This document shows positions 1,459 through 17,971 of a stretch of DNA of 64,000 nt, piece after piece. This DNA comes from a virus (lineage: Duplodnaviria; Caudoviricetes), in the IMG/VR virus record IMGVR_UViG_3300036855_000054, positions 1-64,000 of that record, one strand, 5' to 3'. How positions within the stretch are numbered: the first letter of the stretch is position 1; every line of letters starts with the position of its first letter. Under the pieces are notes generated by a model. It was not told where the DNA came from. It worked only from the letters and a program-made list of their open reading frames with translations, and made no database searches. The translations under genes and the position numbers were made by a program.

Positions 1459-1469
1459 GAGGGCAGCCC

Positions 1470-2414: not shown

Positions 2415-2433
2415 TCAGACGCTAGACGTAAGT

Positions 2434-2465: not shown

Positions 2466-2665
2466 GACAAAAGCATCACGCGTGAACCCGCTGGTTCCTG
2501 ACGCCTTGCCACCTACCCTGGTAAGGATAGCTCATGTTGATGATGACCATCCATCAACAGGCGGCAGCGGGTCTGCGTGTCCGACACGCAAGGAGGACCC
2601 GTGGGCATCACGCCCGCTACCAGCACAGTTACCGCATCCCCGCAGGTGATCGGCGGCGGCGCCGC

Positions 2666-3202
2666 ATGACCTGGACGAAGCTCGGAGACGAGTTTTGGGA
2701 CGAGTGCGCGGCCGGTGGACTCACCGACGAGGCGACCCGCACCCACGGTGAAGCGATCGGCTGGGTGTACCGCATCGAGCGCACCGACCTGCACATCCCC
2801 AAGCACCTGATACGCCGCTTCGCGGGCAGCACCCGGTGGGAGTCGGCGGTCGTGGAGTTGGCGTCCGCCGGGTTCTGGCGGGACTGCGGCAACACGTACC
2901 TCATCGAGCACCACGCCGACGTGATCCGCGCGTCGATCGCCGCTCAACGTCGCAAGCGCGAACGGGACAAGCAGGCTCAGCGTGGGTGGCGGAAGCGTGC
3001 CACCGAACCCTCCGTAAGCGCTGACGTCAGCGACGGCGTAAGCGCTTACGTAAGCGCAGGTGTCAGTGGCGACGCAGACAGCCAGACAGACAGCCAAGAA
3101 GGGAAGGTGACCAAGAACGAAACGAACGACTGGCCAGAGGTACGCCAACCAGGCACACCCGACGCCCCCTGGCAGGCCATGGCACCCGGCTACGACCGCT
3201 GA
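2666..3202 (+). CDS. Replication-initiator-like wHTH protein (actinophage/island type)
   Basis: MTWTKLGDEFWD...AVVELASAGFW...YLIEHH, basic coil, then VSAD-type repeats. Confidence 0.6.
   Translation: MTWTKLGDEFWDECAAGGLTDEATRTHGEAIGWVYRIERTDLHIPKHLIRRFAGSTRWESAVVELASAGFWRDCGNTYLIEHHADVIRASIAAQRRKRERDKQAQRGWRKRATEPSVSADVSDGVSAYVSAGVSGDADSQTDSQEGKVTKNETNDWPEVRQPGTPDAPWQAMAPGYDR
3013..3072 (+). repeat. Five tandem 12-bp repeats (CGTMAGCGCNNN), iteron-like
   Basis: cgtaagcgctga cgtcagcgacgg cgtaagcgctta cgtaagcgcagg tgtcagtggcga. Confidence 0.8.
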
Positions 3203-3206
3203 AGCC

Positions 3207-3278
3207 CCCGTGCTGACCTTCACGTCGCAGGAGTGGGACGCTTTCACTGGGGGCGTCAAGGACGGTGAGTTCGACTAG
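3207..3278 (+). pseudogene. DUF397 C-terminal fragment
   Basis: Translates PVLTFTSQEWDAFTGGVKDGEFD*; the N-terminal WRKSS/CVEV part is absent in frame. Confidence 0.7.
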
Positions 3279-3503
3279 ACCGACCAGCACAGGCACAGAC
3301 AGATGGACGCCCCGGTCAGCCGCGATGGCTGGCCGGGGCGTTCGTCGCTTACGGCACGGGCCGGAGTCGCCCCCGCGATCACGGGCATGATCCGGGGGCG
3401 GTGGTGTGGTGGGTGCGAGAGCGCAGGAACGTTCATGGCCCGACGGAGCATCAACACCCACCGGAGGCATGTCGATCGGCAAGCGGTCAGGGGAGAATTC
3501 TGC

Positions 3504-3794
3504 TCACATCGCCCGATCGGTGCGGCGCGTCACGCCGATCAGCTGCTCCCACTCGTCCTCCAGGTCGGTGAGCCGGTCCAGGTCCGGCCAGCTGCGCACC
3601 ATCACCGCCACACCGCACCCCGCCAGGACCACGGCCCCGGCGGCGACGGCCAGCCAGAAAACGGCACGTCCGGACAGCACTCCGACCAGCCCCCAAGACA
3701 CAGCAAGCGACGCTAAGACGGGTGCAAGGGTACGGCGGTCGAGCACTGCGGCTCCTCGGTGGCAGGGGGGTGTCCGAGGGAGATCGGCCACCAC
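3504..3794 (-). CDS. Small membrane protein
   Basis: Two hydrophobic segments; start uncertain. Confidence 0.5.
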   Translation of the reverse strand: MVADLPRTPPCHRGAAVLDRRTLAPVLASLAVSWGLVGVLSGRAVFWLAVAAGAVVLAGCGVAVMVRSWPDLDRLTDLEDEWEQLIGVTRRTDRAM

Positions 3795-3922
3795 GGCGGG
3801 ACCGTTACTGCTCGGTATGTTTCCGCCCGATGTAGGACGGCTTGTCCTACCTGCGTCCCTGCTTGTCCGGAATGATTCTCATGTGCGAGTTCCCGGGGGG
3901 CGTGCTCGCGCGCCCGGCGCGA

Positions 3923-3957
3923 CAGCGGCCCGGTGTCAGATCGACACCGGGCCGCTG
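3923..3957. repeat. Perfect 15-bp inverted repeat
   Basis: CAGCGGCCCGGTGTC-agatc-GACACCGGGCCGCTG in non-coding DNA. Confidence 0.75.
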
Positions 3958-4312
3958 CGCTTAACCCCACTACCGAAAACCAGGAAAAACCCTGCGGGAA
4001 ACGGTAACACCGCGCTCCCAGCCTCAGCGGGCTGACGCTAACACGAGGCGGCTACTCCCCCAGCAGAAGATGCCCGGAGTTCGTCCTCGGTGTTCCCGCC
4101 GGCTGCGCGACAACATGCGCGACACGCTCATGACCTGCGATAGCCAGATCAGCGGTGCAGTGTCCGCATGGTGTCCCGGTAGACCATCGGACCGCTCTCA
4201 GTCGTCACCATGACGCCTCGTCACCTTGGACGCGGTGCCGAGTGGCACCGTGTTTGACTGGCTACGCGCAACTGCCTACTCATCAGTAATGGCGCTGTGA
4301 GCAGCGACAGCC

Positions 4313-4464
4313 AGATCACCGCAGCACCATTCCACCGGAACATCCCGTCACGTTTCGACCACGACACCGCAGCACGGTGACACCGGATGACCCATCCAGT
4401 GAGGCAGTGCATCTTCCTGTCATCGCTGCCTCTGTCCAGCGCTACACCGCCGCACCGCTGCACG
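4313..4464. promoter_or_regulatory. Putative partition centromere: 19 in-phase 8-bp units ending in CACC-like boxes
   Basis: 7 exact CACC, 8 with one mismatch and 4 with two mismatches, at exact 8-bp period, upstream of parA. Confidence 0.65.
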
Positions 4465-4608
4465 TCTGTCGTCCAGCCACCTGTCAGTGGGGTAGGGCGG
4501 TAGCCACCTCCGTGTGACGCGCGGCGCCGGTGCTGCGCCGTAGAACAGGTGTGCTGCAAGATGACGGGGCGTTCATCAACTTGCGGCGATCAGGCGAGGT
4601 GTCGACAC

Positions 4609-5454
4609 ATGACAGACGGACAACGGCGACACGCCGGGACCAGACAACGCAGACAGGCCAGCGTGGTGTCCGCCGCCATGCAAAAGGGCGGCGTCGGGAA
4701 GACCACCACCATCTGCAACGTGGCCGGCGCCGCCTCAGCCCGCGCCCTGAGCACCCTCGTCGTCGACTTCGACCCGCAAGGCAACACCACCAGCACCCTC
4801 GCAGCCGAGGCGGTCGCCCGGAACCAGCTCACCATCGCCGACGCCGTCCACCCCGAAGAAGACGAACGCGTCCCGCTCGCCGACGTGATGGTGCCGACGA
4901 TCTGGGAGCACGTGAGGCTCGCGCCCGCGGTGACCAACTCCCTGACGAAAGTGGAGCGGCTCATCAACGCCGCCGACCACGACCGCGAGTACCGGCTGAT
5001 CGAGGCACTCGAACCGGAACTGGCGAACGTGGACCTCGTCCTCGTCGACAACGCACCCTCACTCGGGCAGCTGATGCGCAACGCGCTGAACGCCAGCGAC
5101 TACGCATTCGCGGTCGTCCAGGCCGACCAGTGGTCCTGCGACGGCCTCGGCGAACTGCGGGAGACGGTCAAACGCGTCCAGCGGCGCAACCGCGGCCTGA
5201 CCCTGTCCGGGGCGCTGATCAGCATGTGGCGCAACACCGCCGACGAGAAGTTCTGGCTGCGCGAGATCATCGAGAACTTCGACGAGGCCGAGGTGTGGGA
5301 ACACGACAAGATCCCGCAGTGGACCGCGATCAAAACCACCCTCAACGCGGGCATCCGGCTGGACCAGTCCCGGGAGAGCCGTCTGCGGGTCCTCGGGCAC
5401 ACCTACCGCCGGCTGCTGGCCCGATGGGTTCCCGACCCGGAGGTGACGATCTGA
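4609..5454 (+). CDS. parA: ParA family partition ATPase (type Ib, no N-terminal HTH)
   Basis: QKGGVGKTT, VVDFDPQGN, LVDNAPSLG; start uncertain. Confidence 0.92.
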   Translation: MTDGQRRHAGTRQRRQASVVSAAMQKGGVGKTTTICNVAGAASARALSTLVVDFDPQGNTTSTLAAEAVARNQLTIADAVHPEEDERVPLADVMVPTIWEHVRLAPAVTNSLTKVERLINAADHDREYRLIEALEPELANVDLVLVDNAPSLGQLMRNALNASDYAFAVVQADQWSCDGLGELRETVKRVQRRNRGLTLSGALISMWRNTADEKFWLREIIENFDEAEVWEHDKIPQWTAIKTTLNAGIRLDQSRESRLRVLGHTYRRLLARWVPDPEVTI

Positions 5455-5825
5455 TGCAGCCGAAACCACGGCGCCTGTCAAAACTCTCCGAAGGCGACCC
5501 GCTCAACGGCGACGACGCCGACCTCCAACCCCAGCGGGCGCCGGTTCCCCGCGAACCACCGCCGCAGCCAACACCGCCACCGTCTCGACAGCTGCTCACG
5601 ACACGGTCCCGGCGGCGACGCGCGGCGCCGCTCTCCGACACGGCGATGGTCTCGTTCAACTGCAACATGATGGTCGGGATGCGCCGCCTCGTCCGCCGCT
5701 TCGCCGCCGACCACGACGTGGACATCCAGGACGTCGTCGAGGAAGCCCTCGCCCGATACCTCGAGGACCAGGGCATCGAAGCGCCACGAAGGCCACTTGA
5801 CCAGCAGCAGCCAGATCAGCGCTGA
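5454..5825 (+). CDS. Centromere-binding protein with C-terminal ribbon-helix-helix (ParG-like)
   Basis: TGATG overlap with parA; disordered N-terminus, then VSFNCNM...RRFAADHDVDIQDVVEEALARYL. Confidence 0.75.
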   Translation: MQPKPRRLSKLSEGDPLNGDDADLQPQRAPVPREPPPQPTPPPSRQLLTTRSRRRRAAPLSDTAMVSFNCNMMVGMRRLVRRFAADHDVDIQDVVEEALARYLEDQGIEAPRRPLDQQQPDQR

Positions 5826-5852
5826 CCTACGGACACGGCCGGGGAGGGTGCG

Positions 5853-6131
5853 GTGCCGCTGAACTTGACCGGGCTCCCGGCGTGGTACGTCCACCTCACC
5901 GACGCCCACGAGGCCGAGATGCAACGCCTGCTGGCCGAACGGGACACCGCCGCGGAGGTGCTACTCGAGCACGCCCCGGTGTTCCGTGAGGCCCTGGTGT
6001 GTGTGGAGTGCTCCGAGACGTACCCGTGTGCGGCGCTGCGGGCGGTGCATGACGGGCGGGGAGTGTGGCCGGCGGACGCGCGGCAACTCGCCGGGGTCGA
6101 GCATGGTCAAGGACTAGCCCCGAAGCGGTAG
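5853..6131 (+). CDS. Hypothetical Zn-binding protein
   Basis: HxP...CVEC...YPC motif. Confidence 0.5.
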   Translation: MPLNLTGLPAWYVHLTDAHEAEMQRLLAERDTAAEVLLEHAPVFREALVCVECSETYPCAALRAVHDGRGVWPADARQLAGVEHGQGLAPKR

Positions 6132-6635
6132 CATCACCCGGAGCAACCCCCAGCGAAAATACCCACCTCGCCGGGGTCCCCTACCGCAATGATCGGCCCG
6201 ACGTGTCCGGACTTTTCGCGTATCGAACGGGCGACGCCCCGGAGCGCACTGCTGCGCTCAACGGGGCATCTACCCAATACGCCAAACCGGTCCCCACCGG
6301 CGACGCGATCCATAGCATACGGGTCCCCGCACCTGCGCAGACGTCCGACACCACGCTAGGTGGCGGGTCTGACATCGGCGGACATCGGCGCGTCACGGTG
6401 ACTGACCACGGCGGCCGCGTCAGACTCTCTGACCATGAACTAACCCAAGACATGACGAAGGCCCGGCGTTGGCAGCGCCGAGCCTCTGTCTCAGATGATC
6501 ACGCGGGTGGCACCCCGCTACGACTCTTCCGCTCCCCCGAGGGTATGGGGTTGCTTGTTGCCGTCATGGTACGGCAGGGAGCGGTCAAGTCGCTAGTTGT
6601 GCTGCCCGCGTGTCGAACTCCGAGGAGCGGCACGC

Positions 6636-6809
6636 ATGGAACAGCAGCAGCCGGGTAACCCACCCGGCACCACCGGAGTACCCAACTGGGTGCTCGAAGC
6701 CCCGATCTCAGACCGGGCGCTCCGCATCTACGTCCTACTGCGCTCGGACAGCCATCCGCCCGGTGAGCCGACCGTGGAGACGCTCGCAACGTTCGGGGGT
6801 CGCCGGTGA
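6636..6809 (+). CDS. Short or truncated HTH replication-protein N-terminus
   Basis: VPNWVLEAPISDRALRIYVLL...PTVETLA; GAGGAG RBS; ends before a recognition helix; GTGA overlap with the next gene. Confidence 0.55.
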   Translation: MEQQQPGNPPGTTGVPNWVLEAPISDRALRIYVLLRSDSHPPGEPTVETLATFGGRR

Positions 6810-7912
6810 GCGGCGCAGTCACCGCGCGGAGAGCGCAGCGCGTCAACAAGGGCAAAGAAGAGATCCGGCGCGACATGCTCCAGACCAAGAGTCTGAGCTG
6901 GAAAGCCCGCGGCCTGCTCTCCTACTGCATCTCCCTGCCCGAGCAGTGGGAATGCCACGGTGTCGCCGGGCTCGCCCGAGCCTCCGACAACGACGGTTAC
7001 GAGGCCACCAACAACGCCGTCAAGGAACTGGAGGCAGCCGGCCTGTTCGTCCGGCTGAAGCGCCAAGGTAAGAGCAGGCAGTGGGAGTGGCTGTGGACCT
7101 ATAGCGACGACCCCAGTGAGGTCGCCGCCGAGGTCGCCAAGTGGGTCGGTGAGGGATACCGGGTCAGCACCAACCGCGGTGGCAACAAGAAGGCGAAGGG
7201 ACGCCCCGACCAGCAGGCTCTCGACGACCAGGACAACGAGGCCGGGCAGCCCGAACCTGAACCCGTGTCCGGGAAACCCGAACACGGGTCACCGGACTCA
7301 CCGGACCCAGCCACCGTGTCTGGGTTTTCCGGACACGGCTCACCCGAGTACGGCCCAGCCGGGCACGGAGAACCGCGAAATATAGATGTTCACTCAACAG
7401 GGGTTACTCAAGACGCACTACCTCCTTCGGAGGTAGTGCGCGCTTCGCACGCACGCACGCGCGAGGACACGCCTGCCGATCCGCCATCGAAGCGAAGCCG
7501 GCCGGCCGCCGCGCACGTCCCCGCGGCCGAGCTGAACAGGACCGCGCACGGCGTCGGGGCCCGACGGATCATCGACCGCTGGCGACAAGGACACGAGACC
7601 CCGCACCGGTACTCGGTGTACCGGGAAATCTCCAAGGAAGTCGATCAACTCCTCAAGGACGGGGCCGACCCTTCCCTGATCCTGGTCGCACTCCGCGACT
7701 GGGACTTCCGCGGGAAGACCAGCGGGTTCCTGAAGAACTGCTACGACGACGCCGTCCACGATTCCCGGCCTGTGCACGAACGGCGACGAACCGTCGAGCC
7801 GCGAACAGCCACGTCATCCGTGGTTGACGTGGAGGTTGAGGCCGCGGTCGCCGGGCTCGTAGCCAAGTACGCCGGCACCGGTTTCCTGGCACTCCCGGAG
7901 GGCGCCCGATGA
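6806..7912 (+). CDS. Phage replication initiator (wHTH) with internal iterons
   Basis: LSWKARGLLSY..SLPEQW, AVKELEAAG, central PxxG repeats; followed by a loader-like gene. Confidence 0.8.
   Translation: MSGAVTARRAQRVNKGKEEIRRDMLQTKSLSWKARGLLSYCISLPEQWECHGVAGLARASDNDGYEATNNAVKELEAAGLFVRLKRQGKSRQWEWLWTYSDDPSEVAAEVAKWVGEGYRVSTNRGGNKKAKGRPDQQALDDQDNEAGQPEPEPVSGKPEHGSPDSPDPATVSGFSGHGSPEYGPAGHGEPRNIDVHSTGVTQDALPPSEVVRASHARTREDTPADPPSKRSRPAAAHVPAAELNRTAHGVGARRIIDRWRQGHETPHRYSVYREISKEVDQLLKDGADPSLILVALRDWDFRGKTSGFLKNCYDDAVHDSRPVHERRRTVEPRTATSSVVDVEVEAAVAGLVAKYAGTGFLALPEGAR
7263..7376. repeat. Iteron-like CCGRRCACGG direct and inverted repeats (putative ori)
   Basis: ccgtgtccgg, ccgaacacgg, ccgtgtctgg, ccggacacgg, ccgagtacgg, ccgggcacgg; the last three at 15-bp period. 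Confidence 0.65.
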
Positions 7913-8568
7913 TGACCGTCGAGGAGCTGACGTCCCTGCTGAAAATGGTGGGGCGGGGAGATAACCGCACCACCGGCACGGCGAACGCCGAGTACTGGGC
8001 GTTGATGGCGCAGCAGGGTGGCTGGACGTGGAAGACCGCCGTGCGGGCTTTGGTGCAGTTCCGCACGCAACACCCGGGGACGTGGATGGACCCGGGGCAC
8101 ATCACGGCGATCATCAAGGACGCTCGGGAGAAGGCCGCGCTGTCGTTCGTGGTGCCCGATTACCCCGAGGATCTCCCTCCGCCGGAGTACGCGGAGTGGT
8201 ACCGGGCGCGGAAGAACGAGCACGTCGACCGGATCCTGGCGGGTTGGTCGAAGGGCGAGCCGATCCCGGAACCCAGTGCGGCGAACGAGATCCGGGAACA
8301 TCGCGCGCTGGCCGGAGGAAGTGGTGTCCCACTGGAGCTTCCGGTCGTGTCGGCTCCCCCTGAGTTGCGGGCTGACCTGCGCAAGAACTGGCGCAAGCTC
8401 GTCGAGAAGCGCCCTCAGCTGCCGCCGGTTCAGGCGCTCAGGCCCACGCCGAAGGCGGCGCTGGATCCGCAGCGGATGGCCGAGGCGCGCCGCGAACTGG
8501 ACCAGATCCGGGAGCGGCAACCTGCCGGGGACGGCGACGGATCCGACCCTGAAGCGGTGGCGTCGTGA
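7909..8568 (+). CDS. Helicase loader/inhibitor-like protein
   Basis: MTVEELTSLL...DNRT....AEYW...AVRAL...WMDPGHI pattern; coupled to the initiator gene. Confidence 0.6.
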   Translation: MMTVEELTSLLKMVGRGDNRTTGTANAEYWALMAQQGGWTWKTAVRALVQFRTQHPGTWMDPGHITAIIKDAREKAALSFVVPDYPEDLPPPEYAEWYRARKNEHVDRILAGWSKGEPIPEPSAANEIREHRALAGGSGVPLELPVVSAPPELRADLRKNWRKLVEKRPQLPPVQALRPTPKAALDPQRMAEARRELDQIRERQPAGDGDGSDPEAVAS

Positions 8569-8837
8569 GCGAGGCCACCATCCGTCCCCGCGTGGTCGCC
8601 CTGCCGCTGCCGGCGGACGCCACCAAGGAGGAACGGCTGCGCCGGCGTGCGTTCAAGTCCTGGGTGCAGAAGGTTCCATGTCCGGTCCCGCACTGCCGGG
8701 CGCAGCCTTTCGAGGCGTGCAAGGAACCGAGCCATGGAGGGTTCCGGAGGATGATCACGTGGCATCCGCAGCGTCAGGATCTCGCGGACAAGCGCCTCGG
8801 GGAGAACGTGCGGGATGAGACCGGGGTGGCGTCGTGA
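8565..8837 (+). CDS. Phage zinc-finger protein
   Basis: CPVPHCRAQPFEAC...HPQR. Confidence 0.65.
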   Translation: MSEATIRPRVVALPLPADATKEERLRRRAFKSWVQKVPCPVPHCRAQPFEACKEPSHGGFRRMITWHPQRQDLADKRLGENVRDETGVAS

Positions 8838-9268
8838 ACCGGCGTCAGGAGTACGCCCTCGCGCATCCGCTCACCCGTGCCGACCTCGGCCTGGACGCTC
8901 TGGCGCCGTTCACTGCGGTCGACGTGATGCCGAGCGGGAATCTGCTGCGCTCGATCCTGGCGGTCGATCGTTGAATGAAGCTCAACTCAGGTGCGCCCGT
9001 GTGGCACACAAGCCTGTCCCTGTGGACACCCGACCAGCGCACGATGCTGCGCTCACCCACCCAGGTCGAACGCGCCGCCGTGGAGTTGCTCGCCGGGGTG
9101 GGCAACGACCGGGAGTGGTGGATCTGGAGACCTGCGCCGCGGGTGGGTCATCTGCGTGTGGGTTTGACCGTCGAGGAGGTTGCTGTGCTGCCCGAAGTTC
9201 CTGCTGAGCACGACGCCGGGGATTCCGGCCCGGAGCGTCGTCGCACCCCTGCGAGGAGACCAGGATGA
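8834..9268 (+). pseudogene. Hypothetical gene interrupted by an in-frame TGA at 8972-8974 (or two adjacent genes)
   Basis: GTG 8834 and ATG 8975 are in the same frame, separated by a single stop codon. Confidence 0.5.
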
Positions 9269-9801
9269 CCCTGACCGGCGAGAAAGCCGTTCCCGTGCTG
9301 TACCTGGACATCGACGGCACCGTGCGGCACGGCGTCGACGAGCTCGGCCGGTTCGTCAACACCGCTGACGACGTGGTCGTGTTCCCCGAGGCGGTGGAGA
9401 TGATGCGCCGCTGGAAGGCTGGCGGCGGCCGGATCATCGGGGTCAGCAACCAGGGCGGCATCGCGCTCGGCCACGTCAAGGCGTCGGACATGGTGAAGGC
9501 GATGGAGCGGACTCACCAACTGTCGGGTGGCCTCTTCGACAAGATCGCCTGGTGCCAGCACCATCCTCAGGCCAGCCACCCCGAGATGGCCCGGTGCTGG
9601 TGCCGTAAGCCCTCACCTGGCCTTGTGATCGAAGCGTCGCTCAACCTGGCCGAGAGGTGCCGAGGCGAGATCTACCCGCCCTACATGGGCCTCATGGTCG
9701 GAGACCGACCGGAAGACGAGGAGTGCGCCCGCCTCGCTGGCCTGGATTTCCAGTGGGCCGCTGACTGGCGTGCGCAGGCCGTGGAGGTGGCCGATGCCTG
9801 A
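9265..9801 (+). CDS. HAD-IIIA phosphatase (GmhB/HisB-like)
   Basis: DIDGT, VSNQGGI, CQHHP...CWCRKPSPG, MVGDR. Confidence 0.88.
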   Translation: MTLTGEKAVPVLYLDIDGTVRHGVDELGRFVNTADDVVVFPEAVEMMRRWKAGGGRIIGVSNQGGIALGHVKASDMVKAMERTHQLSGGLFDKIAWCQHHPQASHPEMARCWCRKPSPGLVIEASLNLAERCRGEIYPPYMGLMVGDRPEDEECARLAGLDFQWAADWRAQAVEVADA

Positions 9802-9976
9802 GCAACTCCCGTGGTCCCGCTGGCCGTGGAATCGGTGCCCGGCGCGGCGCGAACGCCAGCCTGGCGACACCGACTGGGGCCGCTGCGAGTTGCGGCGCCA
9901 CGGCCCGGAGATCGATCACGCCCTGGAGCGCGGCATGGGTGCCGATCGGCGCTGGAGCACCCGGTGGACGTCGTGA
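9794..9976 (+). CDS. Hypothetical protein
   Basis: GGAGG RBS; Cys/His pattern; coupled. Confidence 0.5.
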   Translation: MPEQLPWSRWPWNRCPARRERQPGDTDWGRCELRRHGPEIDHALERGMGADRRWSTRWTS

Positions 9977-10233
9977 GCGAGCAGCGGTGCGAGTGCTGTG
10001 ACCTGCCTGTCTCCTCGTGCGGCAAGGCAGCCGAGGCGGTGCAACGCCAGCAGTTGATGGCGGAGCGGGCGCTGCTGTTGGCTGCGGGCTGGTTCCCGGC
10101 CCGGTGGGCGGGTGAGTGCGCCGGCTGCGGCTACTGGTTCAAAATGGGTGCCCTGATCCGCCGCGATGGCGAGGATTGGCGTTCGGAGTGCTGCTCGGAC
10201 GGTGCCGTAGTGGGCAGTGGGAGGTCGCGGTGA
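9973..10233 (+). CDS. Cys-rich hypothetical protein
   Basis: CECCDLP..SCG, CAGCG, ECC; GTGA overlaps. Confidence 0.6.
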   Translation: MSEQRCECCDLPVSSCGKAAEAVQRQQLMAERALLLAAGWFPARWAGECAGCGYWFKMGALIRRDGEDWRSECCSDGAVVGSGRSR

Positions 10234-10395
10234 GCGGCACCTTCATCGATGCGGACGGCGTTATCCGCCAGCGCCACGGCCATGTCACACCGCAGCCGCT
10301 CGTGGCGCGGTGCGGAGGGCCCGGGATGTGCACGGTGTGCCGGGCCGAGCGGGACCACGAAACACGCGGCGACATGGCGGGGTGCGTGTTCTGCC
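10230..10395 (+). pseudogene. Interrupted gene: HGHVTP/CGGPGMC module followed by a HIT-like start MAGCVFC
   Basis: Coding sense is lost exactly where the ychF-like sequence begins. Confidence 0.5.
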
Positions 10396-10548
10396 GAGAT
10401 CGTCTCCTACGACGACCTGGTCGCCGCCGGTTCGATGGCCGACGCCCGCAGCGCCGGAAAGGTCCGCATGGAGGGCAAGGACTACGTGATGGCCGACGGC
10501 GACGTCGTCGAGTTCCGCCACGGAGCAACGTCTAAGCCGAGCAAGTGA
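10393..10548 (+). pseudogene. ychF: 3' fragment of the ribosome-binding ATPase YchF
   Basis: AEIVSYDDLVAAGSMADARSAGKVRMEGKDYVMADGDVVEFR matches the conserved YchF C-terminus; no 5' part present. Confidence 0.9.
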
Positions 10549-10647
10549 TAGTCCCATGCCCTGCCGATAGCCGGGTATGACCGGGGTGCTTGAGACACTC
10601 GTGTCTCGGTCGTGTTCTCTCGTGCCGCCGTGTGCGATGCTGGATTC

Positions 10648-11361
10648 GTGAGCGACAGTCCTCGATCCAGTGGCGTGCTGGTATATCTCGACACTTCCGT
10701 CCTGGCCATGCCCGAGGCGGCCCGGCAGCTCGGAATGCCGGTTACGACACTGCGGCACTGGCTGGAGGGTCACACTATCGACGGCCGGTTCTACGAACCC
10801 GTCCTGCGGCCTGAGCCAGTCGGCTCCAACGATGTCACATGGGGTGAGCTGGTCGAGGCAGATTACCTGCGCGCTTACCGTGGTAAGGGTGTGTCGATGC
10901 AGGCACTGCGCCCGTTCATCCAGCAGGCTCGTGAACGATTCGGGCTTCGCTACCCGCTGGCGCACCTGCGCCCGTTCACCGACGGTCGAAAGCTTCTGCT
11001 GGAGTTGCAGACTGAAGCGCACCTTTCGGATGCGTTGCGCGTGGTCTACCAGCTTCACGACGGGCAGCTTGAGCTTGATCATCGTGCCGATTCCTGGCTT
11101 GAGCGTGTCGAACGTGACGCCGACCAGGACACCGCTGCGCGAATCCGTCCCGACGGTCCTGACTCGCCGGTTGTTCATGATCCACAGATCTCCTCCGCAG
11201 CGGCCACCGTCGCTGGCATCCGCACCGAGATCATCCGCGAGCAGTACGAGTCCGGTGAGGAGACCCGCGACATCGCTCAGACCTTCGGTTTGCCGATCGA
11301 TCACGTCTTGGCCGCGCTGAGCCATGAACAACGTCAGCGACCGCTGCGCGTCGCCGCCTGA
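10648..11361 (+). CDS. DUF433 antitoxin with N-terminal HTH (VapB45-like)
   Basis: MPEAARQLGMPVTTLRHWL; TWGELVEA; HDPQISSAAATVAGIRTEII...IAQTFGL. Confidence 0.82.
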   Translation: MSDSPRSSGVLVYLDTSVLAMPEAARQLGMPVTTLRHWLEGHTIDGRFYEPVLRPEPVGSNDVTWGELVEADYLRAYRGKGVSMQALRPFIQQARERFGLRYPLAHLRPFTDGRKLLLELQTEAHLSDALRVVYQLHDGQLELDHRADSWLERVERDADQDTAARIRPDGPDSPVVHDPQISSAAATVAGIRTEIIREQYESGEETRDIAQTFGLPIDHVLAALSHEQRQRPLRVAA

Positions 11362-11590
11362 CGCTGCGCTCATGCAACTCGGCCGGGCTCGCTGGTACAT
11401 CGACGCCGACACCCTAGGTGTCGCTGCGATTCTTATGCGTGCTCGACCCGACGTCACCTTCCCCGGTGACTCGGGTGAGCGGCACAGCCCGCGCTGGCAT
11501 CTTCCTGCGTGCTCGATCACCCGCACCGACACACCAGATGTCGAGTGGATCCCCAAGGTGACCGCGGCTGGTCTGGCGATCATCACTCGC
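11324..11590 (+). pseudogene. PIN-like toxin (VapC45-like), truncated
   Basis: WYIDADTL...TPDVEWIPKV...AIITR, then diverges before the expected TRD motif and C-terminal half. Confidence 0.7.
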
Positions 11591-11652
11591 TGCACGGGCA
11601 CGCCCGCACCGTGGAGGTCGCGGAGATCGCCGCAGCAGCGCTCAACGTGCCA

Positions 11653-11847
11653 TCACAGCACCCCCAATTCCTGCCGGGCTGCGGCCAGTTCGGCGCAGCG
11701 TGCGTAGACGTCGCCGGTGCGGGTGTGCGGGTTGCAGTCGGCGAACCGGCGCCACTGCTGCGTGGTGTACGCGGTGCCGCTGAGCAGGAACGCTGCGGCG
11801 CTGTCGATATCGCGGTGGCGCATGTCGGCGTCGGTGGGGATGAACAT
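11653..11847 (-). CDS. Hypothetical protein
   Basis: GAGGA RBS; GC3-rich codons. Confidence 0.5.
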   Translation of the reverse strand: MFIPTDADMRHRDIDSAAAFLLSGTAYTTQQWRRFADCNPHTRTGDVYARCAELAAARQELGVL

Positions 11848-11906
11848 CGCGGGTCCTCGCTTGCGGTAGGGACGGTCAGCGGTGGGGAGTCGCTGACCGG
11901 GGGTGG

Positions 11907-12464
11907 CTAGCTGGTGCGGGCCATCTCGCGTGACAAGCGGTAGATCCCGTCCTGCACGGTGTCGTACGTGCCGTGCCAGTGCGGGGACATCTCCGGGAGC
12001 CTCGTGCGGCTGTCCGCGTCGGCCGGCAGCCCGGACTGGCGGATCACTTCGGCGCGCAACTCGGCTGTGAACTCCGGGGAGATCGTGCGGTTGGCGAAGA
12101 CATGCCCGGTCATGAAGTGCACCAGCTCCGCCTTCGCGCAGCAGCGGGAGGTGTGCACATCGTTGTTGCTGGACACGTCACACCCGTAGGTCTCGGCGAC
12201 GCGGGCGCCGTGCTGCGGGCAGTACCAGGAGTTGGCCGAGTAGGCGCAGTCGGTCATCCCCTCGAACCGGCCGCCCCGGAAACCGTTCGCGACTGCCTCG
12301 ACCTGGTCGACGGTGGGGCCGTCGGTCCAGAACACGTTGACCGATGAGCCGCCTGCGTAGCGTTCGATGCGGACTGAGAACTTCACGGCGGGGAATCCGC
12401 GCTTCAGGAATGGGCGCAGCAGCTTGGCGACTTCGGCGGTGTCGATGTAGCGGGCGGCGGTCAT
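11907..12464 (-). CDS. LPD29 domain protein
   Basis: AKLLR..LK..FP.VKFSVR...YAGGSSVNVFWTDGPT..QV...F.G..F.GMTD. Confidence 0.8.
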   Translation of the reverse strand: MTAARYIDTAEVAKLLRPFLKRGFPAVKFSVRIERYAGGSSVNVFWTDGPTVDQVEAVANGFRGGRFEGMTDCAYSANSWYCPQHGARVAETYGCDVSSNNDVHTSRCCAKAELVHFMTGHVFANRTISPEFTAELRAEVIRQSGLPADADSRTRLPEMSPHWHGTYDTVQDGIYRLSREMARTS

Positions 12465-12489
12465 CTGGTCCTCCTGGTGGCCCCGGTTT

Positions 12490-12570
12490 CTGTAATACAC
12501 AATCTACGCCGCGGTGGCCGGTGGCGCAAGGGTTTACGTGTCACAAAAACTGTGTATTCTTGTGGCACAC
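12490..12570. promoter_or_regulatory. Divergent promoters with operator-like inverted motifs
   Basis: AATACACA (12494) and TGTGTATT (12551); GTGTCACAA and TTGTGGCAC; AT-rich. Confidence 0.5.
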
Positions 12571-12587
12571 GAACCAGGGAGCCGCCG

Positions 12588-12806
12588 ATGACCGAGAAGC
12601 GCCGTCCTGGACGGCCAGCCACGGGCCAGAAACCGAACTACCCGATCCGCGTCGACCGGGAAGTTCAGGACGCGTTCGTCGCAGCTGCGGGCAAAGAGCA
12701 CCCGGCAGTGGTCGCCGCGTTCATGGCCTGGTACGCGCGCCTACCCGGTTCACGACGTCCCGAACGCCCCCCCGCGGCTGGTCCCGAGCCCGAATTCGGC
12801 GGATAG
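12588..12806 (+). CDS. Small RHH-type regulator
   Basis: GRPATGQKPNYPIRVD...AFMAWY. Confidence 0.7.
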   Translation: MTEKRRPGRPATGQKPNYPIRVDREVQDAFVAAAGKEHPAVVAAFMAWYARLPGSRRPERPPAAGPEPEFGG

Positions 12807-12940
12807 CACACCGCCCAGCACCAAGATCGGGCGACACGCCGAGCAGGCGCCCACAGCCACCACCCGCCCACGGCCATCATCAACACACGGGTAGCGCACC
12901 CCAGCACCCGGATCCCCTACCGCAAACCTGGAGACCCGCC

Positions 12941-14173
12941 ATGCCTACGCCGCCGCCGCCGGAGAGCGCCGAGGACCTCGAGACGTCCATCAGCGACGTC
13001 GTGCGCACCGGCCAGATCGTCACCACCGCTCAGTGGATTGTCGCGTCGGTCGTGATGGGCGGCTCGGCGCTCAGCGCCGGGTACGCCTTCGGGCACTTCC
13101 ACGAGCCGTTCTACATGGGCTTCATCATCGGCCTGGCCGTGGACACCGCCCTCGCCTCGTGGCTGCTGATCTCCCGCAAGCTCCGCGCCACCGGCGTGAA
13201 AACGGCGTGGGGGCCGGTCCTCGAGGGCATCACCGCCCTGATGACCCTGTGCCTGAACTCCGGGTCCTCGATGCTGGACGGGAACTACGCCCTGGCCGGT
13301 GCGCACGCGTTCCTGCCGGTCGTGCTGTTCGTGCTGTCGATGGCCGGCGGGGAGGCGCAGCACAAGTTGCACGACCTGCTGAAGAAGAAGGAAGCCGCCG
13401 AGGCCGCCCGCAAACGCCAGGCGGACGACGACGAGAGGATCCGCAGCGAGCGCGCGACCCGAGAGCACCACGAGACGACCCGCACGGAGAACAACCGCCG
13501 CACTGCCGAGGCCACCAAGGCAGCCAAGGAAGCCGAGAAGGAGACTGAGGCGCACAAGGCGAGCGTCACGGTCGCACGGGAGGAGAACGAGGCGGCCGTG
13601 ACGATGGAGCGTGAGAGGAACGAGACCGCGCTGACGGTCGAGCGGGAGCGGAGCGAGACTGCTGCGACGCTCGAGCGGGAAGCCCGCGAGCACGCAACTC
13701 AGAAATCCGTTCGGGAGCTGTCTGGGCTCATTCTGATGAGCACCACAATGCGCGTCGTCGCAATGACAGCGGCCGGCTTGAATGGGACTGGACAATCGTC
13801 GCGCCAGTATTCTGCCATCCCCCGCCAGGGGTCGGTTTCGCCAGCCGGATCGCCAGCGTCGCCAGCCCGCGTCGCCAGCGGTTCGCCAGCGCCGTCGCCA
13901 GCCCGTCGCCAGCCCGCGTCGCCAGCCCGTCGCCAGCCGCCGCCAGCATCACCAGCGCAGGTCGCGCCCGATCTGGCGAAGCTGGTGACGCTGGCGAAGC
14001 AGGAGCTGGCGACGTCGCCAGGGATGGGCCGGCCGACGCTGGCGAAGAGGCTGGCGGAAAGGTCTGGCGACCACGTCACCGACCACATGGTGAAGACGAT
14101 TCGACGAATGATCGACGATGAGCAGAGGGAGCTTCTGGCGGCCGAGGTGGCTGGATTCCTCAGCGCGCAGTAG
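12941..14173 (+). CDS. Spread-protein-like (DUF2637/Spd type) membrane protein with coiled coil and C-terminal HTH
   Basis: Four TM helices, E/R/K coil, SPA repeats, GMGRPTLAKRL. Confidence 0.6.
   Translation: MPTPPPPESAEDLETSISDVVRTGQIVTTAQWIVASVVMGGSALSAGYAFGHFHEPFYMGFIIGLAVDTALASWLLISRKLRATGVKTAWGPVLEGITALMTLCLNSGSSMLDGNYALAGAHAFLPVVLFVLSMAGGEAQHKLHDLLKKKEAAEAARKRQADDDERIRSERATREHHETTRTENNRRTAEATKAAKEAEKETEAHKASVTVAREENEAAVTMERERNETALTVERERSETAATLEREAREHATQKSVRELSGLILMSTTMRVVAMTAAGLNGTGQSSRQYSAIPRQGSVSPAGSPASPARVASGSPAPSPARRQPASPARRQPPPASPAQVAPDLAKLVTLAKQELATSPGMGRPTLAKRLAERSGDHVTDHMVKTIRRMIDDEQRELLAAEVAGFLSAQ
13838..13956 (+). repeat. TCGCCAGC-type short repeats inside the CDS
   Basis: About ten CGCCAGC copies at short spacing. 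Confidence 0.7.
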
Positions 14174-14194
14174 TAATCGCTCGATCCCCATAAA

Positions 14195-14245
14195 CAACGA
14201 GAAGGGCCGGTCACCTCCATGTGAGGTGACCGGCCCTTCTCGTTG
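14195..14245. terminator. Perfect 23-bp stem hairpin
   Basis: CAACGAGAAGGGCCGGTCACCTC-catgt-GAGGTGACCGGCCCTTCTCGTTG. Confidence 0.85.
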
Positions 14246-14265
14246 CGCTGGGTCGTACTGGTCGT

Positions 14266-14650
14266 GGAGCACACAAACACACACACCGCCGGCAGGAGGG
14301 GGGGGTGCTGCCTCATCTGCCCCTGGTAGGAGCGGGTGTGCCCGTGGGTCGCCACACAGTGTGTGTGTTTGCTCCTGCCGGTCCGCCCTAGGCGCCCTAG
14401 CCCGCTGGTCAGGGGGTGGTCCTGCTGCTCTAGGCCCAGGTCTAGACCTTGGGGGTAGTGAGGTGGTGAGGGGCTGGTCTGGTCTAGAGGTTGGCGGCGT
14501 GGTGGATGCGCTGGTCGCCGCGGTGGTGGTGGGGCGGGACGAAATTTCGGACGAAATTTCGCGGGTGGGGGCGCGGGTGGCCCGGTGGGGGGTCCAACGC
14601 GCCCGCGCGCGCCCGCGCGCGAGAAGCCAGAGTGTAGGCCGAAATTTCGC
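14266..14650. other. Non-coding motif-rich cis region
   Basis: 13-bp (CA)n inverted repeat, five CTAG, three CGAAATTTCG palindromes. Confidence 0.6.
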
Positions 14651-14716
14651 GGCGGCGTGTCGATCCTGGGGGCGTGTCGCGGCAGCGGTCTGCTGGGCCG
14701 GGAGGGACGCCACGGA

Positions 14717-14782
14717 TGTTTGGCGATATCGCCTATTGACAAGGGTCACCGGGCCACCGTAGATTAACGATATCGCCAAACA
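14717..14782 (+). promoter_or_regulatory. Housekeeping-sigma promoter flanked by inverted operators
   Basis: TTGACA(14736)-N18-TAGATT(14760); TGTTTGGCGATATCG / CGATATCGCCAAACA perfect 15-bp inverted repeat. Confidence 0.8.
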
Positions 14783-14801
14783 CCGTTCTACGGAGGACCC
14801 G

Positions 14802-15329
14802 ATGACCCGCATCTACGTTACTGAGACCGACACCGACAGCTACGACCCGTGGGAGTCCGACGAGCAGGCACCCCGCCGACGCGCCGGGTTCTTCACCGAG
14901 GAGTCCGCCACGTACTGGCACGGCGACAAGGCCGTGTTCGACGGCTCCAACCTGGCCGACGTCAACACTCGCGACCAGAACCGCGGCCAGGGTCTCTACC
15001 GCACCGCCAAGGGTCGCTGGGTGCTGCGCACCTGGTCCAACTGGCAGGGCGAGGTCGACACCTACTCGTACGTCACCGAGGACGACGCCCGCGACTGGCT
15101 GATCTTCAACGCGGAAGAGGACGCGGCGCAGAAGTACTTCGGCGAGATCGAGGACGAGCGCGGACCCGGCCGCCCCGAGGTCGGCGGCGCCGTGCACGTT
15201 CGTCTCGGCGACCTGCTGCCCAGCCTGGACGCGTGGGCGTCCCGCGCGGCAGTCTCCCGCGCGGACGCGGTCCGGGAAGCGGTCCGGCGTCTGCTCGCCG
15301 AGGAGCCTGTCGGCAGCCACATCGGCTGA
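14802..15329 (+). CDS. Acidic domain fused to a C-terminal CopG-like RHH
   Basis: LYRTAKGRWVL domain; GRPEVG..VHVRL...LDAWA...VSRADAVREAV; GGAGG RBS. Confidence 0.75.
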   Translation: MTRIYVTETDTDSYDPWESDEQAPRRRAGFFTEESATYWHGDKAVFDGSNLADVNTRDQNRGQGLYRTAKGRWVLRTWSNWQGEVDTYSYVTEDDARDWLIFNAEEDAAQKYFGEIEDERGPGRPEVGGAVHVRLGDLLPSLDAWASRAAVSRADAVREAVRRLLAEEPVGSHIG

Positions 15330-15346
15330 CCACCCAGAACGCACAA

Positions 15347-15388
15347 AAGCGCCCCACCCTCACGCTCAGGCGCAAGGGTGGGGCGCTT
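15347..15388. terminator. Terminator hairpin between convergent genes
   Basis: AAGCGCCCCACCCT/AGGGTGGGGCGCTT. Confidence 0.75.
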
Positions 15389-15680
15389 CCTTGGTGTCCC
15401 GGGTCGATGCCGACCACGCGGGACAGCTCAGGGGACTGGTGTGCTCATGCTACGGATGGCTGGCGCCAGATGATGTTGTACGGCGTGCTCACGATGAAAG
15501 GACTCCATGGAGGGATGGGTATCCGGGTCCCTGTGATCGTCACCGTTGGCGGAGGTAGTCGGAGACGGTCATCCCTCGCCGTCCCGCCCGCTGGCGGAGT
15601 TGCTTCATCTCTACCTCGGTGAGCCGCGCCGAGACGATGCGAGTCCGGGCGTTCTCGCCGTCAGGTCCGCGCATGTGCAG

Positions 15681-15836
15681 TCAGCCCTCTCGGTGCCGGT
15701 GCCGCAGGGCTCCCACCATGGCAGTAGCAGCGAAGGCGACGACACCGAGGATCACGAGCCAGAACAGTGCCTTGACGGCGAGACCGACCACGACGCAGAC
15801 CACCCACAGAACGAGTAGGCCGATGATCACGGGCAT
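15681..15836 (-). CDS. Small 2-TM membrane protein (not in the ORF track)
   Basis: MPVIIGLLVLWVVCVVVGLAVKALFWLVILGVVAF...; overlaps the holin stop. Confidence 0.6.
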   Translation of the reverse strand: MPVIIGLLVLWVVCVVVGLAVKALFWLVILGVVAFAATAMVGALRHRHREG

Positions 15837-16177
15837 CAGACGCCGCGCACCGCGGCCGGGTGCGCGGTGACCTGGGTGCGGACGAACGCCGCCACGATGG
15901 CCGCAGCGAACGCCATGATGACCGCCTGATTCCCGGCGGTCATGTGCAGACCGAACGCGAGCCCGAGCGCCAGCGCCGCCTGGATCACGCCGAGGATCGC
16001 GGGCGCGAGCTGGTCGGAGTGGACCAGGACGGCGGTGACCAGCCCGGTGATCGCGATAGCGACAGCGTTGATCACACCCTGCTGGTCGGCGGTCAGGGGC
16101 AGGACGAATGCGCTGACCATCTGCACGATGGCGGCGATCAGGCCCAGGATCAGGGCAGGTTCACGGCGCGGGGTCAT
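15836..16177 (-). CDS. Holin-like 4-TM protein
   Basis: REPALILGLI...LTADQQGVI...FVRTQVT; GAGGAG RBS. Confidence 0.7.
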   Translation of the reverse strand: MTPRREPALILGLIAAIVQMVSAFVLPLTADQQGVINAVAIAITGLVTAVLVHSDQLAPAILGVIQAALALGLAFGLHMTAGNQAVIMAFAAAIVAAFVRTQVTAHPAAVRGV

Positions 16178-16477
16178 CGGTGTCTCCTCGGGGGATTGTG
16201 TGTGGGGGGCGTAGTAAGCGCCGAACGCCTCGGCGTCGCGCCAGAAGAACCGGCCCGTGATGCCGCGGATGATCCAGTCGCCTTGACCGGCTGGCCAACC
16301 GCCACTGTCGTCGTTGTCGTTCGGCAGGGTCAGCTCCCGCCCGCCGGTCGGGAAGGTCCGGATACGGCCGCCACACCAGGCGGCGATCGCTTCCCAGTCG
16401 GCGTCCTCGGTGAGTTGCGCGGCACGGACCAGCGGTTTCGGTTTGATCGCGTACAACTGGCCCGGCTCCGCGCTCAC
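16178..16477 (-). CDS. Common phage soluble domain (KPxxVxAxQ...GDWIIRG...F...F...Y), in frame with the holin
   Basis: GTG coupled to the DUF1353 stop; no stop codon before the holin ATG. Confidence 0.55.
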
Positions 16478-17010
16478 CGGCGTCGCTCCTTGTTGTGCAT
16501 GGTGGTGGCCATGTAGTCGGCTGCGCTGAGTAGCGACAGGGGGATGAGCAGCAGAATCGCTGGGGCGACGAGCAGTAGGCCGGGAATGGTGATCGCGAGG
16601 ACGAGCGGCGCATCCCGCCACCAGCCGATGTGACCACCGCGGCGTGTGAGCAGGGACCCCCATCTGACTGCCGCGAACATCAGGTAACGGCGAGGGGCTG
16701 CCACACCAAGGGTGCCCAGCGCTTCCAGCAGGATGTGATCAGCGCGCCGGTAGCTGATCAGTCCAGTGGGCACGACGCGACGCCAAAGATGATCATGGAG
16801 TATGGCCGCCGCAGTGCCCGTGAGAACGTCCACAAGCCACCGGAGTACAGCCGGGCTGCTCGTGAGGTCAGTGTCCTGGCCGATCTCGACTTCGATGATC
16901 GTCCCGTCGGCGCAGTGATAGACGAGGCGGCCTAGCGTGCGCCAGGCGTTGAACACCAAGTCGTTGTCCTGGGTGATCGCCACCGGGCGGTTCGATTCGA
17001 AGCCGATCAC
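16474..17010 (-). CDS. DUF1353 protein
   Basis: TDLTSSP, AAILHDHLW, ADHILLEAL, MFAAVRWG. Confidence 0.8.
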   Translation of the reverse strand: MIGFESNRPVAITQDNDLVFNAWRTLGRLVYHCADGTIIEVEIGQDTDLTSSPAVLRWLVDVLTGTAAAILHDHLWRRVVPTGLISYRRADHILLEALGTLGVAAPRRYLMFAAVRWGSLLTRRGGHIGWWRDAPLVLAITIPGLLLVAPAILLLIPLSLLSAADYMATTMHNKERRR

Positions 17011-17387
17011 GAGTCGCCCGCGGTCCCGTACCGCACGAAGAACGGCGGGACATAGAAGTGGCCCGGGTAGCCGATCTGGACCTTGCCGGCGTTGAGCAGT
17101 TCGACAAACTCGAGCTTCTGCGCGTCACTCAGGTGCTGGAAGTAGAACTTCGCTTGGCCGCCGACGTACGCCTTGTAGCTCTTGTCGGTAGGGCCGACCT
17201 CGGCGCCCTCGTGGACCAACTCCATGAATCGGTCCCCGGAGAGCGAGCCGCAGTAGGTGCACGCCGGGTCCGACTGTCCGACCAGCCCGTGGCCCCGTTC
17301 GAAGCCGTCCAGACCTTCGCCCTGCGGGTACTGCCACGGGCCGGGCTCGTTCTCCGCCCGGCGGGGGCATGGCACGCCGGACGTCAT
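17007..17387 (-). CDS. Hypothetical protein
   Basis: CPRR, CTYCGSL, TDKSYKAY, KFYFQHLS; coupled. Confidence 0.65.
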   Translation of the reverse strand: MTSGVPCPRRAENEPGPWQYPQGEGLDGFERGHGLVGQSDPACTYCGSLSGDRFMELVHEGAEVGPTDKSYKAYVGGQAKFYFQHLSDAQKLEFVELLNAGKVQIGYPGHFYVPPFFVRYGTAGDS

Positions 17388-17971
17388 CAGTGCGTCCAGT
17401 CGGCGAGGATCTTGGCCTGCGCCTGCGGGAGGGTCATCTGCCCGGAGCACACCGCGGCCTTCGCGGCGTTCTCGGCCTCGTCCTTCTCCCCGGCCGGGTG
17501 TGCACCGGAGCGCGGCTCGGGCCACAGGTTGCGCGGGTCGGTCGGGTTGCCTCCGGCCTCGAGCGGAAGCAGATGGTCCTCTTCGTATCCGGCGAGGGAC
17601 CCGGACTCCCCGTAGGCCACCATCTGCTGCCGCTTGAGTTGGGTCGTGTAGCTCGCTGGCGGCCGGATGGTGGCGGTCCACCCGCGTACGCAGATGGTCT
17701 GGTGGATGGTGGCCTGCGTGACGTTCGGGTTGGTGACGCCCGGCGTGCAGTTCTTGTCGGCCCGCCCGTTTAGCGCAATACAGGTGTGTGGGCCGACTGC
17801 GGTGACGGTGCCGCTGTCCTGCGCGGCACTGGCCGCGTCATCCGGGTCCGTGGCTGCCGCCACGGGTGCCGGGCTGGCCAGCGGTGCGGCCGGGGAGCCG
17901 CAGCCGCTGAGCCCGGCGCACAAAAAAGCCGCCGTCGCCACGGCGGCTGCGGCTCCCCGGCCTGCTCTCAC
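17387..17971 (-). CDS. Lipoprotein with an HNH-like domain
   Basis: Lipobox LSGC; EEDHLLPLEAGG.P.DPRNLWPEP...KD..EN. Confidence 0.72.
   Translation of the reverse strand: MRAGRGAAAAVATAAFLCAGLSGCGSPAAPLASPAPVAAATDPDDAASAAQDSGTVTAVGPHTCIALNGRADKNCTPGVTNPNVTQATIHQTICVRGWTATIRPPASYTTQLKRQQMVAYGESGSLAGYEEDHLLPLEAGGNPTDPRNLWPEPRSGAHPAGEKDEAENAAKAAVCSGQMTLPQAQAKILADWTH

Follow-up and report, generated by a model that had tools for sequence, protein, structure and literature searches.

Orphan antitoxins are used by phages, as in the case of AdfN, which is carried by T-even phages (PMC11825919), and phage TE-F is known to have captured ToxI by recombination (PMC3475682). In Mycobacterium tuberculosis, Rv2019 is an RNase toxin that is neutralised by Rv2018 (PMC5175181), and DUF433-PIN_10 genes constitute a toxin-antitoxin family of the Mut7-C group that is present in defence islands (PMC5499597). 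The DNA described here is the first 64 kb of IMG/VR virus record IMGVR_UViG_3300036855_000054, a linear sequence of 97,057 bp derived from a short-read metagenome assembly; this 64,000-nt stretch is referred to below as the window, and all coordinates without a contig name refer to it. Between nt 10393 and 11590 it carries a segment of bacterial chromosomal DNA, in which an intact antitoxin gene of the Rv2018/VapB45 type is bordered on one side by the 3' end of the housekeeping gene ychF and on the other by the first half of a PIN_10 toxin gene. Phage-borne orphan antitoxins from host loci are already known, and this appears to be the first one seen for the VapBC45/DUF433-PIN_10 family. The segment and the genes at its borders are arranged as follows (GC3, G+C content at third codon positions).

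10230..10535, + strand: phage gene gX, with a GTG start at 10230, at the end of a rightward operon of closely spaced genes (approximately 7909-10535)
10393..10548, + strand: ychF 3' fragment, the last 51 codons plus stop; left junction between 10392 and 10393
10549..10629, + strand: host intergenic DNA containing a palindrome, GAGACAC-TC-GTGTCTC (10592-10607)
10630..11361, + strand: Rv2018/VapB45-type antitoxin gene, intact, 243 codons, with an N-terminal helix-turn-helix (HTH) and a C-terminal DUF433 domain; GTG start
11372..11590, + strand: stump of a PIN_10 (VapC45-type) toxin gene, the first 73 of 148 codons; right junction between 11590 and 11591
11591..11707, + strand: phage read-on from the toxin stump, 38 codons with a stop at 11705-11707, overlapping the 3' end of the convergent gene
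11653..11847, - strand: convergent phage gene of 64 amino acids (aa), the nearest native gene on the right side of the insert; GC3 0.89

The arrangement resembles that of the TE-F escape mutant (Blower et al. 2012, PMC3475682; toxIN plasmid), in which the antitoxin half of a host locus was also taken by recombination and the toxin left behind, and the expected effect would likewise be suppression of toxin-mediated suicide. The two cases differ in that TE-F acquired an RNA antitoxin (type III), was selected in the laboratory and has a demonstrated function, whereas the antitoxin described here is a type II protein from a metagenome with a predicted function, and lies between the scars of both neighbouring genes. 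A second likeness is to AdfN, the NADAR protein of T-even phages, and to the DarG2-like proteins directed against DarTG (Johannesman et al. 2025, PMC11825919), which are also stand-alone phage antitoxins thought to have been co-opted from bacteria. Those proteins are enzymatic antitoxins of type IV, old and domesticated, whose conservation extends across phage subfamilies, while the present one is recent, of type II, 92% identical to the host sequence, and found in a single phage record. The order of antitoxin and then toxin, separated by a 10-nt gap, is that of Rv2018-Rv2019 (VapBC45 of M. tuberculosis; PMC5175181, PMC5499597; PDB 5AF3), but the phage toxin gene is amputated and the two genes hence no longer form a toxin-antitoxin pair. 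The same HTH_66/DUF433 plus PIN_10 family also occurs in a temperate actinophage, Gordonia phage Murp (ON724008.1; L027:2456-3530), where genes 43 and 42, annotated 'hypothetical protein', match PF21321 (40.9 bits) and PF18478 (51.6 bits), overlap by 26 nt, and have the HTH genes of the immunity region on one side and a serine integrase on the other. Unlike the present locus, both Murp genes are whole, show only 25% identity, and carry no scars of host genes; they are probably a prophage-borne toxin-antitoxin pair rather than an orphan antitoxin.

Extent, origin and age of the host-derived segment

Comparison of host contigs with the whole 97-kb record (blastn) gave a single matching region, nt 10393-11590 (1,198 bp). 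The closest contigs, L002 and L003, align in two parts: nt 917-1149, in the ychF part, to 10393-10627 with 88.1% DNA identity, and nt 1308-2272, the antitoxin-toxin part, to 10626-11590 with 92.5% identity (E values down to 0). Contigs L006 and L026 align from 10393 to 11527 or 11590 at 78% identity, and L007 aligns to 10621-11590 at 73% nucleotide identity. The immediate flanks, left of 10393 and right of 11590, show no relation between phage and host contigs. In the host contigs the gene order is a full ychF followed by an antitoxin of 243-253 aa and a PIN_10 toxin of 148 aa; L002 and L003 carry ychF (>356 aa), antitoxin (243 aa), PIN_10 (148 aa), DUF429 and TNT, and L006 and L026 carry Ada/AlkA, Ogt, ychF (376 aa), antitoxin and PIN_10. 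Homologues of the DUF433-type protein at 97% and 92% identity sit on short metagenome contigs, and the contigs bearing these homologues are bacterial chromosomal. What the phage retains of this locus is the end of ychF, the entire antitoxin gene and the first half of the toxin gene; neither the ychF 5' part, nor the YchF G domain, nor the toxin 3' part was found anywhere in the 97 kb when the host contigs were used as blastn queries.

The segment is foreign and host-derived, because its homology to chromosomal ychF-antitoxin-toxin loci ends at exact boundaries, and because the housekeeping gene ychF is present only as a 3' stump; the type of donor locus and both breakpoints can be read directly. 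A preliminary description of this DNA had placed a foreign segment at 10393-11590, which equals the exact start and stop of the blastn homology, and had listed its content as the end of ychF, a whole gene for a DUF433-type antitoxin and a PIN toxin gene cut off at ITR, all of which is borne out. Its further proposal, that the segment was the att junction of an island, is not supported. No recombinase adjoins the segment in the phage or separates ychF from the toxin-antitoxin pair in L002, L006 or L026, no flanking repeats bounding the segment were found, and the ychF-antitoxin-toxin synteny is common to lineages only 78% identical. Nor is there reason to see in it an att site for integration, as the phage has its own tyrosine integrase (55805-56890) 44 kb away. 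This distance also led to the rejection of aberrant excision beside attP, while a transposon-like insertion was rejected for want of repeats. Illegitimate capture of host DNA is considered highly probable.

The ychF fragment gives a partial match to PF06071 (YchF-GTPase_C, 57.7 bits) and does not have the two domains of YchF. It ends in HGATSKPSK, whereas the canonical ychF of L006, L026 and the metagenome-assembled genome (MAG) G001 ends in FRFNI or FRFNV. The atypical tail (FRHGATSKPSK) had been remarked upon before and is real, but an origin of the tail in the capture was rejected, as host chromosomes already have it: it is identical in L002 and L003 and recurs in contig L028. The tail is a trait of the donor lineage.

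The age of the capture was approached through the pattern of substitutions, with changes in the window lineage polarised using L026 as outgroup and L002 as comparison. Relative to L002, the antitoxin has a ratio of nonsynonymous to synonymous substitution rates (dN/dS) of 0.10, and the values for the ychF and toxin stumps are 0.11 and 0.06, respectively. Third codon positions account for 20 of the 24 window-lineage changes in the antitoxin and for 15 of 21 in the two dead stumps (p = 4e-4 versus 1/3). The latter figure indicates that the stumps diverged from L002 as working chromosomal genes, and that the capture is therefore a recent one; the true donor strain is not represented in databases. 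The many T-ending codons of the DUF433 gene, also noted in the preliminary description, are reflected in its GC3 of 0.70; the copy in L002 has a GC3 of 0.81, and the median for phage genes is 0.85. They result from AT-biased change in the window lineage, which shows 35 GC>AT against 5 AT>GC changes, compared with 16 and 10 in the L002 lineage (Fisher p = 0.018). These changes include 18 C>T and 10 G>A and are mostly synonymous. Decay after capture was rejected as the cause of the low GC3, since third-position changes dominate even in the dead stumps, and the bias is a property of the donor lineage that predates the capture.

The antitoxin, the toxin stump and the pair in host strains

The antitoxin is 96-97% identical in amino-acid sequence to its host counterpart P0001, and has an alternative GTG start at 10612. 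A phmmer search of the Protein Data Bank matched it over its full length to 5AF3, the structure of Rv2018 of M. tuberculosis (residues 20-230 of the query to 13-236 of the chain, E 3.5e-7), with an identity of only about 24%. An AlphaFold2 (AF2) model (predicted local distance difference test, pLDDT, 90) likewise gave 5AF3 as best Foldseek match (E 6.5e-12, TM 0.69/0.77), the next match having an E value of 0.05, and the C-terminal domain of the model matches the DUF433 structure 2GA1. Against Pfam, HTH_66 (PF21321) scores 22.7 bits, with a cut-off of 24.3, and DUF433 (PF04255) is unreported; many homologues at 40-75% identity have both domains according to precomputed assignments. Sequence and predicted fold together indicate an antitoxin of the Rv2018/VapB45 type that is full-length. 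Because PF18478, the UniRef names and the best match by sequence and by fold all point the same way, the earlier assignment to a VapC45-type family was correct. As the phage genome holds the antitoxin without a functional toxin, it is an orphan.

The toxin gene starts 10 nt past the antitoxin stop, as it does in the host, and the stump ends ...AIITR at residue 73; in an alignment of 65 homologues, R73 and the following D74 are invariant. The stump scores 18.7 bits against PF18478 (PIN_10), below the cut-off of 26.2, as expected of half a domain, compared with 48.4 bits for the full-length host protein (P0084). Judged by an AF2 model of the host toxin (pLDDT 94), the stump keeps strand 1, two helices and strand 2, and loses four helices and three strands. 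Accordingly the phage copy does not preserve the Arg-Asp of the T-R-D motif together with the C-terminal half of the alpha/beta core. Since the gene is cut before the invariant D74, half of the fold is gone and the Pfam score falls below cut-off, the stump is incapable of nuclease activity and the toxin is inactivated. Proteins similar to the host toxin are named 'VapC45 PIN like' in UniRef. Fold searches with the host toxin gave no Foldseek match at E <= 0.001 and generic Rossmann/flavodoxin-like matches with VIA-align (Z 5-6), which is consistent with the description of the Mut7-C group as one without a solved structure (PMC5499597).

The intergenic DNA before the antitoxin (10549-10629) lacks 158 bp that are found between ychF and antitoxin in L002, L003, L004 and L005 (L002:1150-1307). 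In L002 this stretch abuts the ATG start and AGGA Shine-Dalgarno sequence of the host antitoxin, and either an insertion in those hosts or a deletion in the donor could account for the difference. No sigma-70-like promoter or terminator was found in 10549-10629, and its predicted fold is no better than that of shuffled sequences (z -0.38).

Among bacterial genomes, the nearest GTDB representative is a MAG titled Mycobacteriales bacterium LS6_sbin.9, in which the antitoxin is 67-69% identical and lies apart from ychF; the ychF genes of this MAG and of L006 share 87% identity. Of 301 genomes sampled from the same order, 34 have relatives of the antitoxin; this tally takes in one unpublished genome (G218), on which nothing else here depends. 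The pair is mobile, as it occurs whole beside a capsid gene and a primase on L007, a 12.2-kb Logan contig (SRR13378646). Here (nt 1-10699) a complete DUF433-type antitoxin and PIN_10 pair adjoins genes for Phage_capsid, DUF3799, a D5_N/DUF5906 primase, and HTH_17 and HTH_3 regulators, and the element looks like a phage satellite or mini-prophage that uses the toxin-antitoxin pair. In host strains the toxin gene is often broken. In L025 (Logan SRR15082120, nt 1-949) a 2.4-kb deletion has removed the toxin 3' half, DUF429 and TNT; its breakpoint, at L002 position 2260, is 12 nt from that of the phage at 2272, which could reflect a local fragile spot or coincidence. In L026 (ENA ERZ25039549, a 90-kb contig) a 5.7-kb insertion at nt 5584-11239, encoding a 946-aa tyrosine recombinase with a Phage_integrase domain, a 302-aa protein and a DDE_Tnp_1_4 transposase, splits the PIN_10 gene, the toxin 3' end following at 11240-11380. 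A third toxin (P0158) carries a frameshift. The DNA 3' of ychF is itself variable among strains: MAG G001 has no toxin-antitoxin pair beside ychF, and in L028 (JGI 3300053168, nt 1-1318) the place of the pair, after a ychF with the tail HGATSKPSK(A), is taken by an IS481-family transposase element, which has a CTAG duplication and imperfect inverted repeats at its termini. An old insertion at this position is therefore possible.

Assembly evidence and competing explanations

A Logan contig of SRR11835640 (7,054 bp) encodes the exact 64-aa protein found to the right of the insert and, by its gene coordinates, spans approximately 10489 to 17540, crossing 11590 without a break or a competing exit path. 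An NCBI contig (11,550 bp) encodes an 88-aa ORF, 10282-10545, which spans 10393. Each junction has thus been seen in a second assembly, probably of the same or a sister sample, on separate contigs. The exact junction sequences were not found in IMG/VR or JGI metagenome contigs, in a search that may leave out the record of the window itself. It is unlikely that the two junctions belong to different molecules, whether joined by the assembler through a common 1.2-kb host sequence or representing two elements that entered the ychF and PIN genes of a chromosome on either side of 1.2 kb of remaining host DNA. Such an artefact would fit a record built from short metagenomic reads, the assembly of the same run in Logan stops inside the segment at approximately 10489, and the length of the NCBI contig is compatible with an end near the right junction; in addition, host-strain PIN genes have been disrupted by other events (the insertion in L026, the nearby deletion in L025), and the collections searched hold no relative with an empty site. 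The Logan break falls in the most conserved part of ychF, and a branch to other ychF genes of the community could explain it. The same contig traverses the right junction with no competing path, the missing parts of ychF and of the PIN gene are absent throughout the record, and neither junction has a recombinase or repeats. The integrase is internal (55.8 kb) and at neither junction, so that the gene order does not match that of a prophage whose att sites are the junctions. Tetranucleotide usage of 1-10392 correlates with that of the rest of the record (r 0.81-0.90) to the same degree as parts of the rest do among themselves, although this is weak evidence, and a related contig joins a Phage_zn_bind_8 block to LPD29 within 2.5 kb. 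It is highly probable that the capture is real and that the insert lies on a single molecule.

Under the explanation favoured here, a temperate actinophage would have gained 1,198 bp of host chromosome by illegitimate, non-site-specific recombination during infection or lysogeny. The insert lies where a rightward operon ends, immediately ahead of a convergent gene, in an insertion-tolerant position; its left edge interrupts ychF and its right edge the PIN_10 toxin gene, so that the antitoxin alone is whole. The antitoxin could be transcribed by read-through from the upstream phage operon, which is plausible because it is co-oriented with that operon and no terminator-like site or stable hairpin lies between. 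Its product would bind the cognate host PIN_10 RNase and silence it when host antitoxin synthesis fails in infection or induction, and might equally neutralise the same toxin from satellites such as that of L007. The outcome would be an orphan-antitoxin function in counter-defence or anti-addiction during infection or lysogeny. Intact cognate pairs do exist in chromosomal contigs that are 92% identical (L002/L003). Taken as a whole, the combination of illegitimate capture with an orphan antitoxin acting against the host PIN_10 toxin is put forward tentatively and falls just short of probable. That the orphan antitoxin is functional for the phage, neutralising the cognate host RNase toxin, is possible and is suggested with reserve, and the full proposition, that a phage has just taken the protein antitoxin of a host chromosomal PIN_10 pair and silences that toxin (of the host or of a satellite) as the first case for the VapBC45/DUF433-PIN_10 family, is more doubtful.

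Several observations weigh against this explanation. No read-level data or relative joins both junctions on one molecule. As regards expression of the antitoxin gene, a promoter-like site was looked for and not found, the start codon is GTG, and because of the 158-bp difference the gene is without the AGGA Shine-Dalgarno sequence of L002. Several host strains are already without the toxin, and the phage's own host may be as well. Selection on the antitoxin inside the phage is unmeasurable, the capture being too recent. None of the other IMG/VR contigs searched carries this antitoxin, so that there is no sign of its spread or retention in phages, and PADLOC has no model for the DUF433-PIN_10 toxin-antitoxin family, for which no anti-phage activity is known. 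Some of these points would equally suit a real capture of neutral cargo, a recent accident at an insertion-tolerant operon end in which the antitoxin is whole only by its position in mid-fragment and will decay. The stumps on either side are plainly of no use, no time has elapsed in the phage according to the substitution pattern, a promoter or Shine-Dalgarno sequence went undetected, the gene is unique among the IMG/VR contigs searched, and the insert damaged the tail of gX. Such an accident would, however, have to leave as the sole complete gene of the fragment the one able to help the phage, cut the harmful toxin before its invariant Asp, and orient the fragment with the upstream operon, a pattern that is also seen in other phages (PMC3475682, PMC11825919); neutral cargo is considered somewhat unlikely. 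A very unlikely explanation is that the segment serves as a homology patch for RecA-dependent, Campbell-type integration at the host locus, or is a relic of aberrant excision of the specialised-transduction type. About 1.2 kb of host-like DNA would suffice for homologous recombination, and a single crossover would give the lysogen a whole ychF and a whole toxin-antitoxin pair, but the phage owns a tyrosine integrase and a ParA system, the host contigs contain no such prophage junctions, and the segment lies far from the integrase, unlike the attP-adjacent DNA that aberrant excision leaves behind.

Where phage counter-defence genes come from is as a rule deduced from homologues that are old and diverged, whereas in this case the donor locus, the breakpoints and the recency of the event are directly legible. 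Should the antitoxin work, the locus would offer a snapshot of the birth of an anti-defence gene, and a natural, fresh counterpart of the laboratory TE-F event. It would also hint that the VapBC45-type (DUF433-PIN_10) family, which is known from M. tuberculosis and has an unclear role, restricts phages or satellites in actinobacteria. If the antitoxin is inactive, the locus is still a clean example of illegitimate uptake of host DNA by a temperate phage.

The phage record and the genes beside the insert

Other features of the record, which has a CheckV completeness of 84%, a G+C content of 68.6% and a median GC3 of phage genes of 0.85, are as follows.

4549-5454: ParA-type partition ATPase
11907-12500, - strand: LPD29 gene (PF18847, 78 bits)
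22400-23554: endolysin
33267-36704: tape measure protein
45273-48029: portal protein
49041-50552: large terminase (TerL)
55805-56890: tyrosine integrase, internal and the sole integrase of the record
Right third of the record: two DNA methylases, an FtsK-like protein and an AAA_24 protein

Because it encodes a tape measure protein, portal, TerL, endolysin, integrase and ParA, the record represents a large temperate siphovirus-type phage of soil-type actinobacteria. It contains no serine recombinase, and the 64-kb window has no tRNA gene. The presence of ParA together with a tyrosine integrase suggests that plasmid persistence and integration are both possible, and the lifestyle is perhaps that of a phage-plasmid. 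INPHARED holds no close relative (megablast with nt 9000-13000, no match), and neither this search nor IMG/VR scans with LPD29 and the 368-aa and 407-aa proteins recovered a relative with an uninterrupted site. A scan with the HAD-like gene returned 13 loci, which have only that gene in common with the phage, and a contig carrying one of the closest LPD29 homologues (L039) shares LPD29 alone. Microhomology at the join, which the preliminary description suggested, is not supported, as no relative with an uninterrupted site is present in the collections searched.

The operon upstream of the insert runs rightward with overlapping starts and stops, in agreement with the gene calls of the Logan contig, and the start of gX, its last gene, overlaps the stop of the preceding gene (GTGA at 10230-10233). 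The ORF of gX consists of 54 native codons (10230-10391) followed by 47 out-of-frame, Arg-rich codons over the ychF fragment, and ends with a stop at 10533-10535. A GC3 frame plot follows the gX frame up to 10392 and the ychF fragment thereafter in the +1 frame (10393 - 10230 = 163 = 3x54+1). An in-frame fusion of gX and YchF is ruled out by this offset, so that the phage ORF does not switch into YchF, as the preliminary description had it, and no YchF tail or fusion is produced. The same description had called gX HIT-like, with a CxIV motif; this was unsupported and was rejected. An exhaustive HMMER search places gX in a family of small proteins only, with the invariant motif HGHV..ARCGGP..C..C and no Pfam match for gX or its family. 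The invariant residues (H16, G17, R27, C28, G29, G30, P31, C34 and C37) are all inside the native 54 residues, the C-termini of the family are variable, and the shortest members have 55 aa. Since the motif lies wholly in the native part, the tails vary and members can be this short, little of gX need have been lost. Among the proteins P0160-P0184 the motif reads HGHV-x-P...ARCGGP-x2-C-x2-C, and one of them, P0160 (1,515 aa), has 16 matched stretches.

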